Positions 18,754-27,247 of a stretch of 52,747 bases of DNA are shown one piece after another. Both the position numbers and the translations under genes were made by a program. Origin of the DNA: a virus (taxonomy: Duplodnaviria > Caudoviricetes); IMG/VR virus record IMGVR_UViG_3300025886_000034, positions 1 through 52,747 of that record, one strand, 5' to 3'. The notes beneath the pieces are model-generated. The model saw nothing but the letters and a program-made list of their open reading frames with translations, made no database searches and was not told where the DNA came from. The stretch's first letter is position 1. Every line of letters starts with the position of its first letter.

Positions 18754-19463
18754 TCATTCGACGAATGAAGATCCAGACTCCGTAGCAATCCAATAATCAA
18801 GATTTCCAGCAACTCGTGAGAAATGCGAGATTCCATCAGTAGAAATTGACACATCATAATCTGCATTTACAATCTTCAGATTTTATCTGCATTTACAATC
18901 TTCAGATTTTCATAGTTAAAAATAGTTTGAAACTCCAACGAAGTTTCACCGACATCAATAGAAAAAACATCACTGTCGGCATTTTTCACATCGATTGCGG
19001 CAATGGAAATATTTTTGCGATCACCTCTAACTACAATGTTAGGCAGTCCCATCACACCAGCCATTTTCACAATCTTAGTAAAGTTGTCAGAATTCAGACG
19101 GAAGTGGATTTTGGCATTCGATAACTCGATGTCATCTTGGGGCGGAGACACAACCAAAACTTCATCGGACAATCCATAGCGAACCTTAGATTTATCATCA
19201 GAAATTACCAAAGAAGAACCGCCATCAACACCAATATCAGGATTATCCATAGATGACAGCACAGACAAAAATCTGTTCAAATCATAAATCGTGAAATTAT
19301 TGTCGAAAGAATCATCAACAGTGGCTCGTGCCAAAATATTTTCTTGCTTGGAAATTGTTCTAATAACATTACCTTGCTTAAACACTAAGCTAGGATTGAT
19401 AATAGAAAAATTTCTAAGAACATTCAATGTATCTTCACTAAGTTTCATATTCACCTCTGGCAT
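18754..19463 (-). CDS. gp45: Sliding clamp, frameshifted in this sequence by a 26-bp duplication (track ORF ends at 18876)
   Basis: MKLSEDTLNVLRNFSIINPSL...IYDLNRFLS. Removing one repeat copy restores ...NADYDVSISTDGISHF...LDYWIATESGSSFVE* ending at 18754. Confidence 0.92.
18859..18910. repeat. Perfect 26-bp tandem duplication
   Basis: atctgcatttacaatcttcagatttt at 18859-18884 and 18885-18910. Confidence 0.95.
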
Positions 19464-19504: not shown

Positions 19505-19528
19505 AAAAAAGGGCGAATATCTTCGCCC
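19505..19528 (-). terminator. Intrinsic terminator
   Basis: GGGCGAA-GATA-TTCGCCC-TTTTTT. Confidence 0.85.
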
Positions 19529-19535
19529 ATTAATG

Positions 19536-19793
19536 TTATTGCGCTGCAGTAGCAGGATCAGCCGCAACTTCAGTAGTAGGCTCATCAGAACCAGATTCTG
19601 CTTCAGCTTCTTGTGCTTCTCGCACCGAAGTCACAATCTGATTTGAAAACGCATCTTTAGCAACATTCAACTGATCAAGTTGGAATTGCAAGTTTTGCAT
19701 TTTTCCCTGAATATCCTGCACTTGAGCCACCAAATACTTTTGGGTATCGGTTAGTTGCTCTTCAGTGTATTCTGTACCATCAATAGTAATCAT
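19536..19793 (-). CDS. Small coiled-coil hypothetical protein
   Basis: MITIDGTEYTEEQLTD...QLDQLNVAKDAF. Likely start 19793 after SD AAGGAG. Confidence 0.75.
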   Translation of the reverse strand: MITIDGTEYTEEQLTDTQKYLVAQVQDIQGKMQNLQFQLDQLNVAKDAFSNQIVTSVREAQEAEAESGSDEPTTEVAADPATAAQ

Positions 19794-19803
19794 ACTAAAC
19801 TCC

Positions 19804-21384
19804 TTAAGGTTTGTAGTAAACAAATACGGGTTCATATTTAGTAATATTCCCGTTTATTTTGCAACTATTTTTCATAGTTGCTTCGCCAGTTTCGGAATCT
19901 ATTCGATTCGCGCCTGGCATTCTAGCAAGAGCCATTTTAAGAACACCTTTATAGGTCATTCCTAAACCCTCCAGAATTTCTCTGCTATCGTTTTCTAACG
20001 GTAGCATATTTTTTCCGAGTTTTATATCTGCAATATTCCACAGCAAATACCTATCGTTACGCAAATACTCAACCGCAGTTTTTAGTGTTTGTTTTAAAAA
20101 TCCGTCACGCCATACTTCATATGTATCAAACTTCTTGTAGGACTGCTCATCATCTTCAGAGTACGCTTCCTTTGAAAAGTAAGGAGGCGAAGTAAATACC
20201 ATATCCAACTCACCCTTATGTTTCTGGAAGTCTGGATTTTCACCAATAACTTCTGAACCCAACTGATAGATTTCGTGTGTATGAGACTTCTTAAACAAGA
20301 CAGCTTCGTTCTTAGTCTCATTATAGAATCTAGCAACATCATGGTATTTAGTACTCAAACTTCCGTCAGGCAAAGTAATCGTATGGTCTTTATTTGGATC
20401 GGTTCCAATATAGTGTATCTTGTGAGGAGACCTAACTGACATAGCTCCTAACAATCTCCCACCCCACCCAGCAGACGGGTCATAAATCTTAATCGTATCT
20501 TGATTCTCAATGTGCTTTGTGTACTTTTCATACAAATACTTTGCCGTCATAGGTGGAAAGTTTACCGCATACTGACACCAAGAAACTCGGAACGCTCGGT
20601 ATCCGGCAGGGAAAAGTTTCTGCCCCTTCTCATAAAAACGAATCGTATATATGAATCCTTCTTTGTCTTCATAATCAATGTTGGTTTTGCACGACTCGGG
20701 TATATTATACTCTAAAAGTTGCTCCTTTGTCAATAGTAAAAACTCAACTTTATTAATCTTTTCGTTATACCCAGAGTAGTCAATACCTTTCTTGTGTTCG
20801 ATCCAGTAATCGTGTGTGCCGTACTGTCGGGCTTTACTTTCAAACCATTCAACAAAACTCTTGACATCGGTTAGTGTGTGCCTCACACTACCCACCACGA
20901 TTTCCTCACCAACCATCATAGTACGAGAATGCTGATAGAACGAATCTCGCTTGAAATGTCGGCGCGCATACTTTATTGTTTTTTCTAACAACTCATCCTT
21001 GGCAAAGTGATCGTAGATTGATAACCCCACATCTTTTTCACTATAGTTTATTCGCGTCTTCATCATGGTAGGAAACCATTGGTTCACGGCATTACCTAAC
21101 CCAGAATGATTTCTAATGATATCAGACTCACCAGTAAGTTCGTCAATAGTCTCGAACTCGTGTACAGGATATCCAGCCATTTTCTTAAACTGTTTTTTGA
21201 TGTCCTCCTCATCTTTACCAACTCTAGGAGGATTGCCATAGTCATCCCAAATTTGAGCAACGGTTTTTCGCAACTCAATAAACCAATCACGAAATTCTTG
21301 ATCAGACATCCACAGAATTTCGTCAAAAGTTTTGTTCACCTTATGATCGATTAAGTGGTTGTTCTTTTCGTAAAAATATTTCAT
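19804..21384 (-). CDS. SAM-dependent amino-(N4C/N6A)-type DNA methyltransferase-like protein with long N-terminal extension
   Basis: Motif I YDPSAGWGGRL, YIGTDPN, and catalytic motif IV FTSPPY. Confidence 0.85.
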   Translation of the reverse strand: MKYFYEKNNHLIDHKVNKTFDEILWMSDQEFRDWFIELRKTVAQIWDDYGNPPRVGKDEEDIKKQFKKMAGYPVHEFETIDELTGESDIIRNHSGLGNAVNQWFPTMMKTRINYSEKDVGLSIYDHFAKDELLEKTIKYARRHFKRDSFYQHSRTMMVGEEIVVGSVRHTLTDVKSFVEWFESKARQYGTHDYWIEHKKGIDYSGYNEKINKVEFLLLTKEQLLEYNIPESCKTNIDYEDKEGFIYTIRFYEKGQKLFPAGYRAFRVSWCQYAVNFPPMTAKYLYEKYTKHIENQDTIKIYDPSAGWGGRLLGAMSVRSPHKIHYIGTDPNKDHTITLPDGSLSTKYHDVARFYNETKNEAVLFKKSHTHEIYQLGSEVIGENPDFQKHKGELDMVFTSPPYFSKEAYSEDDEQSYKKFDTYEVWRDGFLKQTLKTAVEYLRNDRYLLWNIADIKLGKNMLPLENDSREILEGLGMTYKGVLKMALARMPGANRIDSETGEATMKNSCKINGNITKYEPVFVYYKP

Positions 21385-21857
21385 AAAACCTGTTCCAACT
21401 CTGTCCCACAGTTGTGTAAGAAATGCTTACCAGAACCCTTATTTGCATTATACTCTTCATCATAATATACTTTTCGAATCCCACTCTGATGAATCAACTT
21501 GGCACATTCGATGCAGGGTATATGAGTCGTGAATAATATAGCATCCTTGCACGACTCAGAACTCTGCGCAACTTTAGCAATAGCATTAGCCTCTGCGTGA
21601 AGCACTTCTGGTTTGGAAACATATGTCACATAAGTGTCGTGATCCTCTTCGGGGATGTCATTTATGCTGCCCGCCCAGCTGGGCAGAACTTGCAACTCAC
21701 AGTCATTATCCCAACCGGAAGGCATACCATTATACCCAATGCTGATAATCCTATCATCCTTAACAATGATAGCACCAACTTTAGCTCTCTTGGCGTAGCT
21801 CATCTCAGCGAAAGTTTTTGCAACTTTCATATACGCAACAATAAATTTATTCTTCAT
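21381..21857 (-). CDS. cd: dCMP deaminase
   Basis: KVGAIIV, IGYNG, HAEANAI, PCIECAK. Likely start MKNKF at 21857. Confidence 0.95.
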   Translation of the reverse strand: MKNKFIVAYMKVAKTFAEMSYAKRAKVGAIIVKDDRIISIGYNGMPSGWDNDCELQVLPSWAGSINDIPEEDHDTYVTYVSKPEVLHAEANAIAKVAQSSESCKDAILFTTHIPCIECAKLIHQSGIRKVYYDEEYNANKGSGKHFLHNCGTELEQVL

Positions 21858-22506
21858 AGTATTCCAAAGCTTCTTTAACGAACTCACTATCAGGACCATA
21901 GTTGGATCGATTATCGTGCCATTCCATATTCATAGCCCCGACTTTGGCATAGTAACCTTTACCCACAGTATCACAAAAATCTAGGTCCGGTTCCACATGC
22001 TTACCATCATAGTAGTACTCATCAATGATCTCAGCCAGATCCGTTTCGACAGTACCGATACACAACTTAGCAGGGTCAAAGTCACCTTCAGTCTCAATAT
22101 AAACCTCACCAAACCCACCCTTCTCCTCACTAAAGAAATGAAGCACCGGTTGCAGTTCTGGTGTGATTGGTGCAGGTGCACCTTCTGGGCGTGCAGCATG
22201 AGCACTGATATCATACAAATATGCTTCACGGGCATACAGACCATTGTATCTAAATCGCCCTACTTCGGCAATCTCCTCGTCTTCAGAATTTACTTCGAAA
22301 ACATCATATTCATTATCAGCAAAAGGTCCGCTAATATGTTCGATATCATCAATGTCATGCCATGCTAAATCAGAATCCCAGCCATCAAAATTCTCGATAA
22401 TAACATCTTCATCTGCATACTTTAAATTATCAAAAAGTTCTTGAGAAATCCTACCAATAGTAAGTTCACCACCATACCGCCCAGTATAAATCTTAAATCT
22501 TCGCAT
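21847..22506 (-). CDS. Acidic hypothetical protein
   Basis: Long ORF. Likely start MRRFK at 22506 after SD GGAG. Has its own promoter. Confidence 0.75.
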   Translation of the reverse strand: MRRFKIYTGRYGGELTIGRISQELFDNLKYADEDVIIENFDGWDSDLAWHDIDDIEHISGPFADNEYDVFEVNSEDEEIAEVGRFRYNGLYAREAYLYDISAHAARPEGAPAPITPELQPVLHFFSEEKGGFGEVYIETEGDFDPAKLCIGTVETDLAEIIDEYYYDGKHVEPDLDFCDTVGKGYYAKVGAMNMEWHDNRSNYGPDSEFVKEALEYYEE

Positions 22507-22530
22507 AATATAATCTCCAGTTGAATGCAT

Positions 22531-22559
22531 ATTATAACACAGTTTTTCCTAAAAAGCAA
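22531..22559 (-). promoter_or_regulatory. Sigma70-type promoter
   Basis: TTGCTT-17 nt-TATAAT, with TG at the extended -10 position. Confidence 0.75.
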
Positions 22560-23349
22560 CATTCCAATACAAAATATTTTGTGGTTTATCGTGAGTCTCG
22601 TAATAATCCATCATAGGCTTCCAACCTTTAGCATCGTAGGTAGGAGCTGAAGGAAACGGGGGCATCTCCTTTTCCTTGACAGGACGATCAAATTTATAAG
22701 GGGAAATGTGGTGGATTGCTCTACCTATTTCATTCTCCTTCATTGTATGCCCAACTTGAACAACATGGATTTCTGCATCAGGAAACGCCAACTGCAATCC
22801 CCTGCTAAGAGTACCGGACGATCCTACAGACCACACCGCGTCTGGTTTGATAGGTAAATCCTGAGCGACTTTTATGATGGAAGCCAGAACAGTTTCGTGT
22901 TCCAATCCAAGGGGTAGAACTCGGCGTGTAGATGGAGACTTTTCTACATACTTACGCGCATGGGATTGTGTAACATTGAGCATTCCCATCTTAACCCAGT
23001 GATATTCAGCACCGAGTTCTATCCCCCGCTTCTGGTAGTTGTGGAGTTTGTCCATACTCCTCTCTGCCATAAACAAAACTGCTTTCTTACCATACTTAGA
23101 ACATACTACAGGCAAACTTATCTGTGCATATCCAGTTGCGGGGCAAGACCCAAACACCCACTCTTCCACATCTCTGTTTTCTTCTGCGTGACCAACAAAA
23201 TAATCAATAAATCTAATCTTACTACCATAGTTTAGTAAGTCATCACGCACTACAGATACGCCATCATATTCCTCTATCACAGGCGCGGGGTTTGGATCTT
23301 GCCAACCAGCAAGCAACTTTAAATAATCATCAACCAATAAGTTTTCCAT
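22549..23349 (-). CDS. PLP-dependent fold-type II enzyme (ACC deaminase/D-cysteine desulfhydrase/Trp synthase beta-like)
   Basis: VVRDDLL..GSKIR (Schiff-base Lys context), SVGSSGT phosphate loop, PTYDAK, ILYWN. Confidence 0.8.
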   Translation of the reverse strand: MENLLVDDYLKLLAGWQDPNPAPVIEEYDGVSVVRDDLLNYGSKIRFIDYFVGHAEENRDVEEWVFGSCPATGYAQISLPVVCSKYGKKAVLFMAERSMDKLHNYQKRGIELGAEYHWVKMGMLNVTQSHARKYVEKSPSTRRVLPLGLEHETVLASIIKVAQDLPIKPDAVWSVGSSGTLSRGLQLAFPDAEIHVVQVGHTMKENEIGRAIHHISPYKFDRPVKEKEMPPFPSAPTYDAKGWKPMMDYYETHDKPQNILYWNVAF

Positions 23350-24421
23350 ATAAAGATTCCTTAGTCACAACATCAACAACTAAATGTATTCGGTCTTCGG
23401 AACCGAAGTTCACTGCTTTGTGAGGCTTCCTCGTATCAAGAAACCAACACTCACCAACACTCATACTAACATTCTGTTCTACTCCATCAGTATCCCAGAC
23501 TGTAAACATAACCATATCATTTGTTACGATAGGAAAATGTAATCGTGCCAACTTCCCCAAAGAGCCACCAGAATCGGGGTCAACTTGATCCGTATGGCGA
23601 CTCAATTCACCAGACTTAGGTTTCAATAACATAAATCTGACACGATGAACATCATCACCGTAAGGTTCTATCAGATCCCTCACTTCAGGGAACAGATTAT
23701 ATAATACACTATCTTGTAGGGTAAAGTCAATATCTACGTGATCTTTTTTCCACGCATCCGACATCTCGGAAGGTTTAGTGATAAACGCAGGGTCATCGGT
23801 GTATCCGCGCAAAGATAATGCAGACCAAGACTTTCCTTTGTTATAGTTGCTATAATGATTTGTAAACTCGGGTAGTTTGTCCAGTTTAGATCGTATCGAC
23901 TCAATTAAATCCCCATCAACATTATCAACTTTTTTGATACCAACAAACTCAACAGGGTCTATCTCAGGAAACTCTCTCGACTCGCCCCGATAATATATCT
24001 TATAGATTTCTCCGTATGAAGTAATCTTAGGTCCAACTTCACAAAACCCACATTCCTTCGCCAACTCAACGTGCGAATTATTTTCTGCCCACACGTATAG
24101 CCAACAGTCTGCAGTGTACTCATTAATTTTATTTTTCAGTGTAGAAATGTTACCCGACAACTTTGATATAGTAATATCACCGGATAGCTTCTCACCCAGC
24201 ACAGTATTACCATACACCTTGATCTTAGACTTAGCTTTAGACTCGGCAACTTCCAAACGCGCATCATCTAATAATATCAGCCTGTTCTTGTGTAAAGACT
24301 CCGCAATGTTATTTTTCTTGTACTTAGCAAAAGGCGATAAAGTATACTGATTGTAGTCATCAAACAATTTTTCTATATCTTTTAGATAATCTAGATCGTA
24401 CCCATGCTGCCACGCTTTCAT
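23330..24421 (-). CDS. Fusion of a GNAT-like N-terminal domain and an Asp/Asn beta-hydroxylase-family 2OG-Fe(II) dioxygenase
   Basis: C-terminal RHTD...RLHFPI...KPHKAVN...DRIHLVVD (HxD..H..R). N-terminal WLYVWAEN...LAKECGFCEVG resembles GNAT motif B (less certain). Confidence 0.8.
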   Translation of the reverse strand: MKAWQHGYDLDYLKDIEKLFDDYNQYTLSPFAKYKKNNIAESLHKNRLILLDDARLEVAESKAKSKIKVYGNTVLGEKLSGDITISKLSGNISTLKNKINEYTADCWLYVWAENNSHVELAKECGFCEVGPKITSYGEIYKIYYRGESREFPEIDPVEFVGIKKVDNVDGDLIESIRSKLDKLPEFTNHYSNYNKGKSWSALSLRGYTDDPAFITKPSEMSDAWKKDHVDIDFTLQDSVLYNLFPEVRDLIEPYGDDVHRVRFMLLKPKSGELSRHTDQVDPDSGGSLGKLARLHFPIVTNDMVMFTVWDTDGVEQNVSMSVGECWFLDTRKPHKAVNFGSEDRIHLVVDVVTKESLYGKLIG

Positions 24422-26133
24422 TGCTCTACCATCCGAGAAAAATTATTGTGCTTTTCGAACTTCATAACATCAGCAAACTTGTCTTGCAGGATATCACCCT
24501 TATGGCTAATAACAAATAGATTAGTCGCTTCTAGCATATTGAGAAGTTTCATAAGATCCTCTGTTCCATTATTATCGAGAGAAGAATCAAAGACTTCATC
24601 CAAAAGCAAAATATTTGTGCTAGCTGAGTTCTTGAGTTTTGCAATGGTTCTCCAAGTCAGCATTAGTGCCATATCAATCCGCTGTTTCTCACCCTCAGAG
24701 AAGGAAGAATACGAAAAGTCATCGCGGTGCCTAGACTTGATAGTTTCTTTGAACGCTTCGTCAAGATTGAAGTTCACGAAGAAATCCATAGACGCCAAAT
24801 ACTTATTCACCAACTTGTTTATAATCGGAATGTATTGTTTGATGATTCTAGTTTTAATTCCAGTATCCTTGAGCAAGGTAGATGCAATCTCCTGATGATG
24901 TTTTTCATCGAGCATTATGCGGATATTATCCTCGATATCAAGCAGTTCCTGTTCGTATTTGGCAAGCTTTTCTTGCTGCTCTTTGATGTTATTTTTAGCC
25001 GATTCTGATCTAGAAATTTCGTGTTGTAGTGAACCAATATATTTCTGGGATGCCGTGTTTTCGCTCTGTAGACTAACAATTCGTTTTTGTAAATTGTCGA
25101 TTTTATTCATAGATTCATTGATAGACTCCATACGCTCTTTCAGAGACTTATGCTTGCACTTCAGTTCTGACAAACCTTCGCTCACCTGAATCTTTTTATT
25201 TGCCCGCTCAGAAAGCACACTAGACTTAAAAACACCGTCTATATCCTGCTTGCAAGTAGGGCACTCATCGTTACCCTCATAAAAAGAAATTTCACTATCA
25301 ATTTTCTTGACGGTACGGCTTAGATCTTTACGAACATCTTCTAGTTTTTTTAGTTTATCGGAAACCGACGAGGCGACTTTTACGTCTTCTTGCAGTGAGT
25401 TACGAGCAGACTCCAAACTATCAAGATCATCTTTGCGCTTTTCTATCTGAATCTGCTCATCATCAATTTGTTCTTGCAGAACAGCAACCTTTTCTTTGTT
25501 ATCTCTCGTGATATCATCGATATATTGCTTGTGTACATCAATCTTTTCTTCAACAGAATCTGATTTATATTTTGTGTTAGACACCTCGTTTTTTAGTTTT
25601 AAGTGTCTTTCCTTTAGTAAGGAATTCATAGTGGTAAAAATTCGAATGTCCAGCAAATCTTCAATAATAGATCTACGGTCAGCCGCAGACAACTGCATAA
25701 AAGGTGTAAACGAGGCACTACCCAATATCACAATCTGTGTGAATGACTTGTAATTCAGTTTCAGAATAACCTTTTCTAAAGTATCTTGATAATCTTTTAC
25801 TGCAGCGTCTTGATTCAAGAACTTGCCGTTACAATAAATCTCAAAGATGTTAGGCTTCATACCACGAACAACACGATAGGATTTATTGCCAGCATCAAAC
25901 TCAACCTCAACCACCGCATTTTTTTGGTTGATGCTGTTAACCAATTGTGGCTTATTGATATTCCGAAAAGGCTTACCAAACAAACTAAAACACAAAGCAT
26001 CTAGCATGGTAGACTTACCCGAGCCATTAGCACCAAGAATCAGGGTGGAAATTTCTTTGTCCAGTTCAATTTTCGTGAAATAGTTTCCTGAAGACAAAAA
26101 GTTTTTATACTTTAATGTTCTGAATACGATCAC
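24418..26133 (-). CDS. gp46: Rad50/SbcC-like recombination ATPase
   Basis: GANGSGKST, CPTC zinc hook, FSEGEK signature, LLDEVFD. Confidence 0.97.
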   Translation of the reverse strand: MIVFRTLKYKNFLSSGNYFTKIELDKEISTLILGANGSGKSTMLDALCFSLFGKPFRNINKPQLVNSINQKNAVVEVEFDAGNKSYRVVRGMKPNIFEIYCNGKFLNQDAAVKDYQDTLEKVILKLNYKSFTQIVILGSASFTPFMQLSAADRRSIIEDLLDIRIFTTMNSLLKERHLKLKNEVSNTKYKSDSVEEKIDVHKQYIDDITRDNKEKVAVLQEQIDDEQIQIEKRKDDLDSLESARNSLQEDVKVASSVSDKLKKLEDVRKDLSRTVKKIDSEISFYEGNDECPTCKQDIDGVFKSSVLSERANKKIQVSEGLSELKCKHKSLKERMESINESMNKIDNLQKRIVSLQSENTASQKYIGSLQHEISRSESAKNNIKEQQEKLAKYEQELLDIEDNIRIMLDEKHHQEIASTLLKDTGIKTRIIKQYIPIINKLVNKYLASMDFFVNFNLDEAFKETIKSRHRDDFSYSSFSEGEKQRIDMALMLTWRTIAKLKNSASTNILLLDEVFDSSLDNNGTEDLMKLLNMLEATNLFVISHKGDILQDKFADVMKFEKHNNFSRMVEQ

Positions 26134-27188
26134 GCAATAGTCTCCTGAGATAATGCTTCAACATATAATTCACGCATAAGAGTTTTTACCTCCTCAGATT
26201 CATCAATGTTTTGTTGGTCAATATAGTTAGATAAAATCGTCAGAGTATCTTCTGCCTGATCGATCAACTCAGAATCTATATCACCAAGAGTTTCATCCGC
26301 AAAATCTTCTATCACAGAAATGTTTGCAGGATCTACATTATACAGCTCATCGAGCAGTTTGTCAAATAAATATGGACTTTGTTTATTCAGTACGACAATC
26401 TTAACATAAGAATCTGCATAGTCATCAAAATCAATATCAGGCATATCCTTAGAATCGTCATAGTAAATCTTCTGAAACATATTATATTGCGTTTTTACAA
26501 ACTCGATCTCAGAGGTATCAGTATCAAATATCCAAAACCCTTTAGGATCGTTATAGTCATTCCAAAACAACTCGTATGGAGTTCCTAAGTAGCGGATCTT
26601 GCCCACTTGAGATTGTGTGTGAAAGTGCCCACTGTATACAGAATCATATCGATCAAGAAAATCGGAGTTCATACCATCGTGAGACGGAATACCTTTCATC
26701 ATCTGAAAACCAGCCAACTCAAAATGACCAATGCAAAATGGAGAGTTACTTCTATCAATAAAGTTGAAGATCTCTTCCTGATTATCCTTGCAAATCCAAG
26801 GTATCATATCAAACACCGTATTACCCACGGTCAGAGAACCCGGCCCCTGCCACAGAGTAATGTTATCATAACCTCGAAGTAACAAATCTGGAGAGTTTAC
26901 TTCCACACTATTTTTCCAGAAGATATCGTGATTGCCAATCAACGCATGAAAATCAATATCAAACTCCTGTAACCTGTCAAAAAAATACCTGCGGCTTTCT
27001 GACAGAGAAACAAAGTTGATATACTTCCTGCGATCAAACAAATCACCCAGCTGAATAACTGTTTTAATACCATGTTTTTCTATATAAGGAAAGAACTGGT
27101 TTGTGTAGAAGTTGTCATAGTATCGATGAAACGCCAACGAATCGTTACGTACACCAAAATGAGTATCACCTAAGAGGCACACTTTCAT
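26130..27188 (-). CDS. gp47: Mre11/SbcD-like nuclease
   Basis: GDTHFG, GDLFD, GNHD, SGHFH. Confidence 0.97.
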   Translation of the reverse strand: MKVCLLGDTHFGVRNDSLAFHRYYDNFYTNQFFPYIEKHGIKTVIQLGDLFDRRKYINFVSLSESRRYFFDRLQEFDIDFHALIGNHDIFWKNSVEVNSPDLLLRGYDNITLWQGPGSLTVGNTVFDMIPWICKDNQEEIFNFIDRSNSPFCIGHFELAGFQMMKGIPSHDGMNSDFLDRYDSVYSGHFHTQSQVGKIRYLGTPYELFWNDYNDPKGFWIFDTDTSEIEFVKTQYNMFQKIYYDDSKDMPDIDFDDYADSYVKIVVLNKQSPYLFDKLLDELYNVDPANISVIEDFADETLGDIDSELIDQAEDTLTILSNYIDQQNIDESEEVKTLMRELYVEALSQETIA

Positions 27189-27218: not shown

Positions 27219-27247
27219 ATTATAGACTAATATAACAACAATGTCAA
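27219..27247 (-). promoter_or_regulatory. Consensus sigma70 promoter for the gp47-gp46 operon
   Basis: TTGACA-17 nt-TATAAT. Confidence 0.88.

Follow-up and report, generated by a model that had tools for sequence, protein, structure and literature searches.

According to the available part of the report by Lee et al. (2021; PMC8989533), phages M6, ViI, and PaMx11 carry out thymidine hypermodification by hanging an amino acid on the DNA base, which a PLP decarboxylase and an acetyltransferase then sculpt. In that part, M6 gp52 and ViI gp226 were purified and had polymeric DNA as their substrate, M6 gp52 being a decarboxylase that acts on amino acids carried by DNA bases, and no role outside DNA hypermodification is given for its family. 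A PLP enzyme also accompanies a methyltransferase in the siphophages vB_EliS_R6L and ZS04 (Erythrobacter phages) and Mae-JY30 (Microcystis phage), in which a CPPY motif is combined with a ParB N-domain in the methyltransferase, no hydroxylase is present, and the records are annotated 'DNA modification methylase' only.

In the RNA pathways to wybutosine and acp3U, the methyltransferase-fold enzyme TYW2 uses SAM as an aminocarboxypropyl donor and the 2OG oxygenase TYW5 then hydroxylates the side chain; no PLP decarboxylation is known there. In caprazamycin and muraymycin biosynthesis, the side-chain transfer enzyme is PLP-dependent and not methyltransferase-like. As far as described in the available part of PMC9814697, these actinomycete small-molecule antibiotic pathways (Cpz13, Cpz10, and Mur23) include AspH-family 2OG hydroxylation or PLP decarboxylation of a nucleoside side chain: Cpz10 introduces a beta-hydroxyl group into a four-carbon amino-acid side chain that is 'proposed' to be SAM-derived, and the same compound is a substrate of the PLP decarboxylase Mur23. 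The pelagimyophages, T4-like phages of aquatic habitats (Zaragoza-Solas et al. 2020, PMC7029224), encode an Asp/Asn beta-hydroxylase and, 'inside a DNA metabolism operon', a deformylase, a gene layout like that of the loci related to ours; the available part of that paper proposes no function for the hydroxylase and mentions no link to a methyltransferase or PLP enzyme, and 'methyltransferase' occurs 0 times in its main text.

Gene organization of the locus

The window, i.e., the whole 52,747-nt stretch of DNA that was analyzed, contains five tightly packed minus-strand genes between gp46 (24418–26133) on one flank and orf99 (19536–19835) and gp45 (18876–19463) on the other, and all five predicted ORFs were confirmed. 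They encode a 363-aa fusion of a GNAT-fold domain (G) and an AspH-type 2OG/Fe(II) oxygenase (H) (G-H; 23330–24421), a 266-aa predicted fold-type II PLP enzyme of the M6 gp52 family (P; 22549–23349), a 227-aa acidic protein with a pI of 4.2 (21847–22530), a 172-aa dCMP deaminase (21381–21899), and a 526-aa amino-methyltransferase-like protein (M; 19804–21384). The gp46 and 363-aa ORFs overlap by 4 nt, as do the 172-aa and 526-aa ORFs; the 363-aa and 266-aa ORFs overlap by 20 nt, and 18 nt separate the 266-aa and 227-aa ORFs. Pfam, PHROG, and fold searches bore out the domain descriptions in the original prediction, whose observations as a whole were partly confirmed and whose interpretation was partly supported.

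In sequence, P is homologous to M6 gp52, and a cluster of the M6/ViI/PaMx11 kind in Mycobacterium phage LilMcDreamy includes an H homolog. In contrast to those systems, the partner enzyme here resembles methyltransferases and has an exocyclic-amine motif, a 2OG hydroxylase is additional, and searches here found no 5-hmdU DNA kinase, aGPT-PPlase, amino acid:DNA transferase, radical SAM enzyme, or M6-type thymidylate-synthase homolog; the lack of the first two had already been noted. The siphophages named above have a PLP enzyme of the same family as P (37% identity) and a methyltransferase belonging to M's PHROG. M and H are likened to the wybutosine and acp3U enzymes by chemistry alone, and P to Mur23 by reaction alone. 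Literature searches for an earlier description of the M/G-H/P unit turned up none.

Features of M, G-H, and P

The N-terminal domain of M (residues 1–262; 20599..21384, minus strand) is conserved across 30 homologs and was modeled with a pLDDT of mostly 75–94; searches of Pfam, PDB, and Atlas gave no family match for it. The catalytic domain (residues 263–526; 19807..20598, minus strand) adopts the class I methyltransferase fold and carries motifs X (NFPP), I (DPSAGWGGR), and IV (TSPPY), the predicted DPSAGWGG and TSPPY being located at residues 302 and 398, respectively. M scored 21.9 bits against Pfam N6_N4_Mtase (PF01555), under the cutoff of 26.7; its best PHROG was phrog_12517 (1.9e-12), it also matched phrog_498 'DNA methyltransferase' (2.6e-8), and its similarity to ParB-type methyltransferases was weak (BLAST 1.5e-5 and 3e-6; hhalign Prob 66). 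The nearest folds were Trm11 (5e72, Z 15.5) and TrmN (3tma, Z 15.0) (VIA), and Trm14 (3tlj, Z 14.5), tRNA m2G methyltransferases that exceeded generic methyltransferases by only about 1–3 Z. Judging from the SPPY motif, the active site of M is of the exocyclic-amine methyltransferase type, so its target would probably be N6 of adenine, N4 of cytosine, or N2 of guanine and not C5 of thymine; transfer of a methyl and of an aminocarboxypropyl group are indistinguishable from sequence.

G-H has 864 homologs of about 364 aa, and its AF2 model had a pLDDT of 91. Residues 9–150 (23972..24397, minus strand) are modeled as a GNAT fold, an assignment by fold match only, with 2pc1 as the best match (Z 11.7, rmsd 3.7, 137 aligned; VIA), followed by 8zt3 (Z 10.5), 2fia (Z 10.5), and NAA60 (6tgx, Z 10.1). 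A separate GNAT gene of related phages, c15, was weakly similar to this domain (E 4e-4). Residues 154–355 (23357..23962, minus strand) form a double-stranded beta-helix oxygenase domain that matched Pfam Asp_Arg_Hydrox (PF05118; 3e-12, 47.1 bits, cutoff 22.6), and the predicted HTD..H..R signature corresponds to H276-T-D278, H334, and R344, which were invariant in 28/28 aligned homologs. Its fold matches were 1e5r (Z 15.2), Cpz10 (7v4p, Z 14.9, tied with proline hydroxylases), and 4p7x (Z 14.8), with EF-Tu prolyl hydroxylase (4iw3, Z 12.8) and OGFOD1 (Z 11.4) weaker; Foldseek returned 4p7w (1.3e-10) and 7v4f (4.3e-10). By homology, H looks like an active 2OG/Fe(II) enzyme of the AspH, proline-hydroxylase, or Cpz10 type, which hydroxylates amino acids. 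The H homolog of LilMcDreamy, gp4 (29% identity, E 1e-22), is preceded by genes for a ParB-like protein and for an amino acid:DNA transferase of the ADDT type (PF18724, 2.7e-12).

In P, the predicted GSK lysine, K44, was invariant in 29 sequences, as were S178, G179, and T180 of the GSSGT loop, with G176 and S177 nearly so. P scored 17 bits against Pfam PALP, under the cutoff of 35, and matched phrog_7093 (1.1e-33), which includes M6 gp52 (own match 2.2e-159). In an hhalign comparison of the P family with M6 gp52 (Prob 97.6, E 4e-12), K44 paired with K36. By homology, P is assigned to the fold-type II PLP enzymes, in the family of decarboxylases whose substrates are amino acids attached to DNA bases.

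Natural fusions of M, H, and P

Metagenomic fusion proteins joined M, H, and P (1081 and 1138 aa), M and P, H and P, or GNAT and P. The 1081-aa protein P0362, whose cluster has four full-length members, covers M residues 253–526 (E 7e-33), G-H residues 79–363 (35% identity, E 1e-46), and P residues 7–265 (54% identity, E 7e-87), and the 1138-aa P0374 has the same three-part make-up. The fusions are carried on separate contigs, P0367 being found on 14, up to 217 kb. The unusual motifs DPxAGWGGR and TSPPY are common to M and the fusions, and the M domains of P0362, P0363, P0367, P0374, and P0375 were 29–30% identical to M over 250–283 aa. Among 34 long proteins chosen by eye from the best 150 P-profile matches, 17 contained an M-type or ParB-type methyltransferase part, three a G-H part, and one a c15 GNAT; a Pfam scan of 20 of them detected N6_N4_Mtase in 13, YunG in five, Asp_Arg_Hydrox in three, and ParB_N in one.

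In two cultured siphophages, the P domain is inserted within a ParB-methyltransferase. The order in vB_EliS_R6L gp1 is ParB-like domain, methyltransferase half A, PALP (residues 395–622; 40.6 bits, cutoff 35), and methyltransferase half B. In Mae-JY30, neighboring genes encode the methyltransferase (phrog_12517, 1e-101) and the PALP protein. It is difficult to account for repeated fusions in different orders, and for a P domain placed within a methyltransferase, unless the parts are functionally coupled. Together with co-occurrence, the fusions support joint action of the methyltransferase, hydroxylase, and PLP genes.

Distribution among related loci

M has 2126 full-length environmental homologs, and relatives were found on viral contigs (n = 249); every related locus fetched contains M, always with gp46 upstream. 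Co-occurrence was counted in the 59 loci whose gp46-to-M interval was complete. G-H and P were both present in 23 of them, corresponding to 23/27 of the G-H loci and 23/30 of the P loci, and in 7 of 17 groups when loci were grouped at 85% or higher M identity. M occurred without P and without G-H (363-aa form) in 25 loci, P without any H in seven, and G-H without P in four, three of which also lacked a free GNAT and one of which had it. M is clade-wide, and H and P are accessory to it, not an obligate set. When loci were anchored on P, 57/80 held M; in 10/80, no M-like gene lay within 4–6 kb, and P stood beside glycosyltransferase-like genes.

Proposed pathway and alternative explanations

We propose, at a probability of roughly 50%, that M, G-H, and P belong to a single pathway of post-replicative base hypermodification, with the phage's own DNA as its most likely target. 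Judged from sequence, the three proteins probably build a bulky, so far undescribed DNA base in many aquatic T4-like phages. That the substrate is most likely a DNA nucleobase, as in the original prediction's main reading, is supported by the homology of P to M6 gp52, the H homolog beside ADDT, and the fusions of M and P to ParB. Phage ParB-like proteins activate post-replicative DNA-modifying oxygenases, according to the available part of PMC13229309.

Minimal M and P systems contain neither a kinase nor an amino acid:DNA transferase, so SAM is the only amino-acid-bearing donor available, and we therefore propose steps in the order M, H, P, and G. Of the options in the original prediction, the second is the best fit: aminocarboxypropyl transfer and subsequent tailoring, to which we add PLP-dependent decarboxylation. 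M would attach the 3-amino-3-carboxypropyl group of SAM at an exocyclic base nitrogen, H would hydroxylate the side chain, P would remove the carboxylate to leave a cationic aminopropyl arm, and G would acetylate the amine. Alternatively, P may decarboxylate SAM first, and M would then transfer aminopropyl. Swapping of H, P, and the free-standing GNAT between lineages would give different final bases.

It is unlikely that the unit instead modifies tRNA, rRNA, or a translation-apparatus protein, by acp3U or wybutosine chemistry or by ribosomal-protein hydroxylation and acetylation. The known aminocarboxypropyl modifications occur in RNA only, which counts for this explanation, as do the tRNA m2G methyltransferases among M's top folds, the IMG automatic name of the fusions ('tRNA1(Val) A37 N6-methylase TrmN6', a tRNA m6A methylase), the resemblance of H to 4iw3 and OGFOD1, and the peptide deformylase adjoining these genes in 53/59 related loci; deformylase, ribosomal protein S21, and Asp/Asn beta-hydroxylase are also listed among the pelagimyophage core genes in the available part of PMC7029224. 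However, the only characterized relatives of P, as described in PMC8989533, work on DNA. The siphophage M/P pairs are fused to ParB N-terminal domains, an amino acid:DNA transferase adjoins the H homolog, and M matches the DNA-methylase families PF01555 and phrog_498, all of which argue for DNA as the substrate.

Somewhat less probable still is that the genes are independent, M being an orphan m6A/m4C anti-restriction methyltransferase and G-H, P, and the deaminase unrelated auxiliary metabolic genes that have gathered in a plastic region. SPPY is a motif typically seen in N4-cytosine methyltransferases, and the many loci with M but without H or P, together with those having P without H or G-H without P, are in line with this explanation. 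The gp46-gp45 interval is a hyperplastic island that in relatives also carries peptide deformylase, CobS/CobT-like, MazZ-like, and glycosyltransferase-like genes, so position alone says little. Against independence stand the absence of a role for the P family beyond DNA hypermodification in the available part of PMC8989533, and the recurrent fusions in varied order with P inserted in a methyltransferase.

A role before replication, with small molecules or free nucleotides as substrates (for example, a modified dNMP/dNTP, turnover of SAM, or metabolism of a polyamine-like or amino-acid kind), would accord with the dCMP deaminase between P and M, with the free proline, pipecolate, or nucleoside-amino-acid intermediate hydroxylated by H's nearest solved relatives, and with spermidine synthase, a case of methyltransferase-fold aminopropyl transfer. 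We consider it the least probable explanation, since the SPPY motif and ParB fusions suggest polymeric substrates, M6 gp52 and ViI gp226 work on polymeric DNA (PMC8989533, available part), and neither the window nor 161 loci yielded a gene for a nucleotide kinase, a thymidylate-synthase-like protein, or an M6-type hydroxymethylase.

Neighboring genes and transcription signals

The prediction of a five-gene unit did not hold: the acidic ORF and dCMP deaminase are neighbors not linked to the M/G-H/P unit. The deaminase (Pfam 1.5e-22, 79.8 bits, cutoff 25; phrog_174, 3.3e-51), whose translation contains HAE and PCIEC motifs, lay within the gp46-M interval in 18/59 loci and elsewhere in two others (L045 and L079); it is probably a nucleotide-pool enzyme and a bystander. 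The acidic ORF had no match in family searches, Pfam and PHROG among them, and occurred in only 5/81 fetched loci, the nearest relatives, with 91–98% identity in L002–L004 (L002 and L003 being one contig) and 34% in L010 and L011. Its translation may begin at the second ATG (22506), which is preceded by GGAG, instead of at the annotated one.

Sigma-70-like sites, suggested to drive the cluster, were not enriched (35 versus 31.3 ± 5.6 in shuffles), and the proposed internal promoter at 22531–22559 failed the sigma-70 scan, being weak, with only an extended -10 (TGTTATAAT) and a -35 matching 3/6. Perfect 12/12 sites were found on the minus strand at 27247–27219, 26365–26337, and 20733–20704. The first, with a 17-nt spacer, lies upstream of gp47 (start at 27188) and is, from its sequence, the probable promoter of the gp47-gp46-cluster unit. 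A terminator-like hairpin after orf99 (19511..19528, minus strand), with a 7-bp stem containing five GC pairs followed by TTTTTTG, is the probable end of the transcription unit.

Gene arrangement between gp46 and gp45

The analyzed DNA is a 52.7-kb piece of an uncultured viral contig with an estimated completeness of 29%, and its source is a T4-like phage. Its gp46 shares no more than 48% identity with any cultured-phage gp46, the top matches being those of Synechococcus phage S-CREM1 and the Methylophilales Melnitz phages. On the minus strand, gp47 (26130-27188) and gp46 (24418-26133) are followed by G-H, a 363-aa fusion of a GNAT domain (G) and an AspH-type 2OG oxygenase (H) (23330-24421); P, a 266-aa PLP enzyme (22549-23349); an acidic ORF of 227 aa (21847-22530); a 172-aa dCMP deaminase (21381-21899); and M, a 526-aa amino-methyltransferase-like protein (19804-21384). 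A 99-aa ORF (19536-19835) separates M from gp45 and is followed by a terminator-like hairpin (19528-19511), beyond which gp45 and then gp44 are located on the same strand. Re-checking the ORFs and homolog alignments confirmed the coordinates, the close spacing of the genes, and every motif quoted in the original prediction of a five-gene hypermodification cluster. The 99-aa ORF, which is acidic (pI 4.05) and matches phrog_21153 of unknown function (4e-13), lies where rpbA stands in the T4 gene order.

Sigma-70-like sites showed no overall enrichment (35 found vs 31.3 ± 5.6). Three perfect 12/12 TTGACA-17/18-TATAAT sites were present on the coding strand, where about 0.004 would be expected per 20 kb of both strands by our own estimate, and a chance origin is unlikely. 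They are located upstream of gp47 (27247-27219, minus strand), within gp47 (26365-26337, minus strand), and within M (20733-20704, minus strand; approximately codons 218-227). The site within M could give a transcript of the catalytic half alone; no conserved in-frame start was found downstream of it in M. The internal promoter proposed at 22531-22559 is weak: its extended -10 element (TGTTATAAT) is good, but its -35 element is poor. The site directly adjoins the acidic ORF at its first ATG.

Judging from its matches to PF00383 (79.8 bits vs 25) and phrog_174 (3.3e-51) and from the zinc motifs in its translation (HAEANAI and PCIECAKL), the deaminase is an ordinary dCMP deaminase. The acidic ORF (pI 4.2) yielded no match in Pfam, PHROG, NCBIfam, or Atlas and was present in only 5 of 81 fetched loci (two being the same contig), all of them the nearest contigs. 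Its first ATG is at 22530; since GGAG lies 8 nt upstream of the second ATG (22506), the latter is probably the true start, giving a protein of 219 aa, the length called for the homolog in comparison locus L003.

Domain identities and catalytic residues of H, P, and M

H, P, and M each contain an identifiable enzyme domain with conserved catalytic residues. Residues 184-352 of G-H matched Pfam Asp_Arg_Hydrox (PF05118; 3e-12, 47.1 bits vs a gathering cutoff of 22.6), and the iron triad (H276, D278, and H334) and the 2OG-binding arginine (R344) were invariant in 28 aligned homologs. The AF2 model of G-H (pLDDT 91) had two domains. Residues 154-355 were predicted to form a double-stranded beta-helix (Z 14-15), the nearest structures of which were proline 3-hydroxylase 1e5r (Z 15.2), Cpz10 7v4p (14.9), L-proline cis-4-hydroxylase 4p7x (14.8), and AspH (14.1), with the top matches tied within 1 Z; Foldseek matches were 4p7w (1.3e-10) and 7v4f (4.3e-10). 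The N-terminal half was modeled as a soluble GNAT fold (residues 9-150; 2pc1, Z 11.7, rmsd 3.7, 137 residues aligned; further matches 8zt3, 2fia, and 6tgx, Z 10.1-10.5). An LpxO-type lipid A hydroxylase, an alternative raised in the original prediction, would be expected to show membrane anchoring and to lie in a lipid A setting. Residues 1-175 had no GNAT match in Pfam, NCBIfam, or PHROG, and the GNAT half matched c15, the separate GNAT gene of related phages, with a BLAST E value of only 4e-4. Because the model combines a GNAT fold with a beta-helix fold, the GNAT-like/AspH fusion that had been proposed is right by fold, although its GNAT half is invisible to sequence profiles.

P scored below the Pfam PALP cutoff (17 bits vs 35). 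Its residues 28-265 gave a full-length match to phrog_7093 (positions 15-278 of 279, 1.1e-33), a family that is also matched by gp52, the PLP decarboxylase of phage M6 (2.2e-159). Alignment of the P family with gp52 by hhalign (Prob 97.6, E 4e-12, 225 columns) placed K44 of P on K36 of gp52. In 29 sequences, the Schiff-base lysine K44 was invariant, as were S178, G179, and T180 of the GSSGT loop, which we take to be phosphate-binding; G176 and S177 were nearly so. PDB sequence searches with M, P, and their profiles gave nothing significant. By these alignments, P is a homolog of DNA-acting decarboxylases: purified gp52 and ViI gp226 were shown to decarboxylate amino-acid:nucleobase conjugates within polymeric DNA (Lee et al. 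2021, PMC8989533), and the same report proposes K36 of gp52 as the aldimine lysine (PMC8989533).

M carries DPSAGWGGR (motif I) at residue 302 and TSPPY (motif IV) at residue 398, in the classical order with about 90 residues between them. Its predicted model has a class I methyltransferase fold (best Z 15.5), and the closest folds were the tRNA m2G enzymes Trm11, TrmN, and Trm14 (Z 14.5-15.5), which barely exceed generic methyltransferases; Foldseek with the model returned generic class I methyltransferases only. IMG automatic names, like these fold neighbors, point to tRNA enzymes. The score of M against PF01555 was below the gathering score (21.9 bits vs 26.7), the alignment covered residues 394-458 only (profile positions 2-60), and motif I of M lies upstream of motif IV, opposite to the PF01555 order. 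The N-terminal 262 residues were conserved among homologs, and in Atlas this domain matched only unnamed viral clusters (scores ≤0.80). Metagenome homologs numbered 2126 for M (full-length, unnamed, and environmental, with 249 relatives in IMG/VR), 864 for G-H, and 771 for P. None of the 24 matching cultured-phage records reached at least 80% coverage of M, and by megablast the cluster matched no cultured phage.

Natural fusions of the three modules

The decisive evidence that M, H, and P work together comes from natural proteins in which the three modules are fused. A tblastn search of cultured phages with P (37% identity, 92% coverage) led to matches annotated as "DNA modification methylase". 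In gp1 of Erythrobacter phage vB_EliS_R6L (807 aa read), a ParB-like N-terminus precedes a methyltransferase that is split in two: the segment bearing motif I comes first, then a PALP domain (residues 395-622, 40.6 bits vs the cutoff, 35), and then the segment bearing motif IV (FSCPPY). The PLP domain thus interrupts the methyltransferase. In Microcystis phage Mae-JY30, an uninterrupted methyltransferase matching phrog_12517 (1e-101), the best PHROG of M, has a PALP gene immediately after it. The similarity of M to the ParB-methyltransferases is weak, and hhalign of the M family with R6L gp1 aligned the motif IV region alone (Prob 66).

Searching 1.84 billion representative proteins with the P-family profile gave 1392 matches at E ≤0.001, many of them long. 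Among 34 long proteins chosen by eye from the best 150 of these matches, 17 had an M-type or ParB-type methyltransferase part, three had G-H, and one had the GNAT that is free-standing in relatives (c15). Two of these metagenomic proteins, P0362 (1081 aa) and P0374 (1138 aa), carry the M catalytic domain, then G-H, and then P in one chain (E values for P0362 of 7e-33, 1e-46, and 7e-87, respectively). P0363, P0367, and P0375 are fusions of M and P, P0370 consists of G-H, YunG, and P, and P0399 consists of GNAT, YunG, and P. Pfam concurred in the 20 fusions scanned (N6_N4_Mtase in 13, Asp_Arg_Hydrox in three), and the unusual motifs of M, DPxAGWGGR and TSPPY, were common to the fusions. The fusions were found repeatedly and on separate contigs, and their domain orders differ from the gene order in the window, so they are not read-through artifacts of its layout. 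IMG/VR searched with P0362 and P0367 gave unfused forms only. A complex predicted for P and the M catalytic domain scored 0.00 in a run without controls and weighs neither way. YunG (PF24585) adjoined the PLP domain in five of the 20 scanned fusions (P0364, P0370, P0391, P0399, and P0469), with scores under the Pfam gathering cutoff in all five.

Gene content of related loci

Across 80 fetched loci, M shared 57-100% identity with the window copy, always came after gp46, and was about as slow to change as gp46 and gp44. The usual order in relatives is gp47, gp46, peptide deformylase, and G-H or a stand-alone 200-aa hydroxylase; then, each in some loci, P, a 142-aa GNAT, and dCMP deaminase; then M, a phrog_459 "peptidase", an AAA_5/CbbQ_C ATPase, a small ORF, an Anp1-like glycosyltransferase-like ORF, a MazZ-like or other ORF, and gp45. 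The gp46-gp45 interval is so varied in content that it is regarded as a plastic island, where position alone is little proof.

Gene content was counted in the 59 loci whose gp46-to-M interval is complete. G-H and P were both present in 23, GNAT only in 13, the 200-aa hydroxylase with GNAT in 11, P only in seven, and G-H only in three; one locus had G-H and GNAT, and one had none of these. A GNAT function, fused or free, was found in 51 of the 59 loci, and the deaminase in 18. The co-occurrence anticipated for the hydroxylase, the PLP enzyme, and the methyltransferase was seen in part: G-H and P were associated (Fisher 1.3e-6 over 59 loci, kinship ignored; both present in 7 of 17 groups formed at ≥85% M identity), but many lineages carry M with neither H nor P.

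In L032 (6404-6985, 9714-13343, and 13867-15083) and other relatives, the deformylase was identified at 5e-39 and the MazZ-like ORF at 1.7e-33 (dGTP_diPhyd_N). The phrog_459 "peptidase" and the AAA_5/CbbQ_C ATPase form a CobT/CobS-like pair by our own reading; an assignment of these genes downstream of M as NrdA/NrdB was wrong. The deformylase, the CobT/CobS-like pair, and the Anp1-like and MazZ-like genes were absent from the 52.7 kb of the window by tblastn.

Comparison with known hypermodification systems

In tblastn searches, which detect close relatives only, M6 gp51, gp53, gp54, and gp58 matched neither the window nor the 161 loci searched, whereas gp52 matched 98 loci, including the window. 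Unlike the known thymidine hypermodification clusters, the window and these loci thus have no detectable M6-type kinase or amino acid:DNA transferase, and, unlike the M6 cluster, no detectable radical SAM enzyme or thymidylate-synthase homolog. The reported lack of a 5hmdU kinase in the window was borne out within the same reach of close relatives.

The sole cultured-phage homolog of H was gp4 of Mycobacterium phage LilMcDreamy (29% identity, E 1e-22). The gene order in this phage (L203 1-3759) is ParB-like gp1, gp2, gp3, and AspH-type gp4. Gp2, recorded as a queuine tRNA-ribosyltransferase, matches Tet_JBP only weakly (0.0022, under the cutoff), and gp3, a "hypothetical" protein in the record, belongs to the ADDT amino acid:DNA transferases (PF18724, 2.7e-12). 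From these matches, gp1-gp4 look like an unannotated thymidine hypermodification cluster, with the layout that PMC13229309 describes for ParB-dependent phage T-dioxygenase clusters.

No account of a methyltransferase/PLP/AspH DNA-modification system turned up in the literature that was searched. Amino-acid-based DNA hypermodification is known; what would be new here is the initiating enzyme and probably also the target atom.

Proposed pathway and its implications

We put at about one half (0.5) the probability that M, H, and P belong to one pathway that modifies bases of DNA. Counting against it are the tRNA-enzyme neighbors of M, the lineages that have M but neither H nor P, the P loci that lack M, and the weak similarity of M to the ParB-methyltransferases. 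The minimal systems consist of M and P, and the P family needs a base-tethered alpha-amino acid; therefore, SAM is the most economical source. M would transfer the 3-amino-3-carboxypropyl group of SAM onto an exocyclic amine, the kind of group that an SPPY motif binds. Decarboxylation of the adduct by P would leave an aminopropyl arm; H would add a hydroxyl to the side chain, and G an acetyl group to the amine. This specific aminocarboxypropyl chemistry is tentative. The reverse order is equally possible, in which P would decarboxylate SAM first and M would then act as an aminopropyl transferase. A route of methylation, then oxidation, and then PLP-dependent amino-acid capture, the first option in the original prediction, is a poorer fit, since the fold matches of H are with amino-acid hydroxylases rather than AlkB or TET enzymes. 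Cpz10, which ranks among the top three structural matches of H, beta-hydroxylates a four-carbon amino-acid side chain "proposed" to be SAM-transferred onto glycyluridine; this intermediate is also a substrate of the PLP decarboxylase Mur23 (both PMC9814697). For the base of phage PaMx11, an acetyltransferase is reported as the finishing enzyme (PMC8989533).

Under the aminocarboxypropyl reading, a methyltransferase-fold enzyme would take SAM as the amino-acid donor for an exocyclic nitrogen of DNA. PLP decarboxylase, AspH-type hydroxylase, and GNAT, in sets that vary with the lineage, would lead from the adduct to aminopropyl, hydroxy-aminopropyl, or acetamidopropyl bases. These might be the first aminocarboxypropyl-derived DNA bases, in a large uncultured aquatic T4-like phage group and some siphophages, a claim we hold with considerable doubt. 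If true, DNA chemistry of a combinatorial, polyamine-like kind would exist that does not need the 5-hmdU kinase/amino acid:DNA transferase route. The phage DNA hypermodifications known so far take 5-hydroxymethyl pyrimidines or 7-deazaguanine as their starting point; a methyltransferase-like enzyme with SAM would be a new entry point, probably with new target atoms, the exocyclic amines, and would supply DNA-modifying enzymes of a new class that could serve as tools. The pathway would also explain M, which was found in every related locus fetched of these very abundant environmental phages, and would bear on restriction and CRISPR evasion and on virome sequencing bias. It would further give a function to the "Asp/Asn beta-hydroxylase" of the pelagimyophage core, where the hydroxylase and deformylase are listed as core, with no hydroxylase function given in that listing (PMC7029224).

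P-family genes outside the M context

Ten of 80 P-anchored loci had no M-like gene within 4-6 kb, and a further 13 were too short for judgement. In the ten M-less loci (L105 5084-8141, L106 5986-9028, L114, and L103 among them), P lies among UDG-superfamily, RNase H, and exonuclease genes, and the next gene encodes a 457-aa protein with a weak Glycos_transf_1 match, a c54-like ORF, or an Anp1-like ORF. These neighbors suggest that the PLP family of P may have a second, glycosyltransferase-linked use.

In the record of phage M6 (L165 9283-12249), three enzymes of Lee et al. 2021 are annotated under other names: the PLP decarboxylase as "threonine dehydratase", the radical SAM isomerase as "DNA repair photolyase", and the 5-hmdU DNA kinase as "terminase small subunit". 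Genes annotated as "threonine dehydratase" that match P were also present in Bordetella phages CN1, FP1, MW2, CN2, and LK3, and CN1 (L164 6797-9759) has the same three-gene order as M6.
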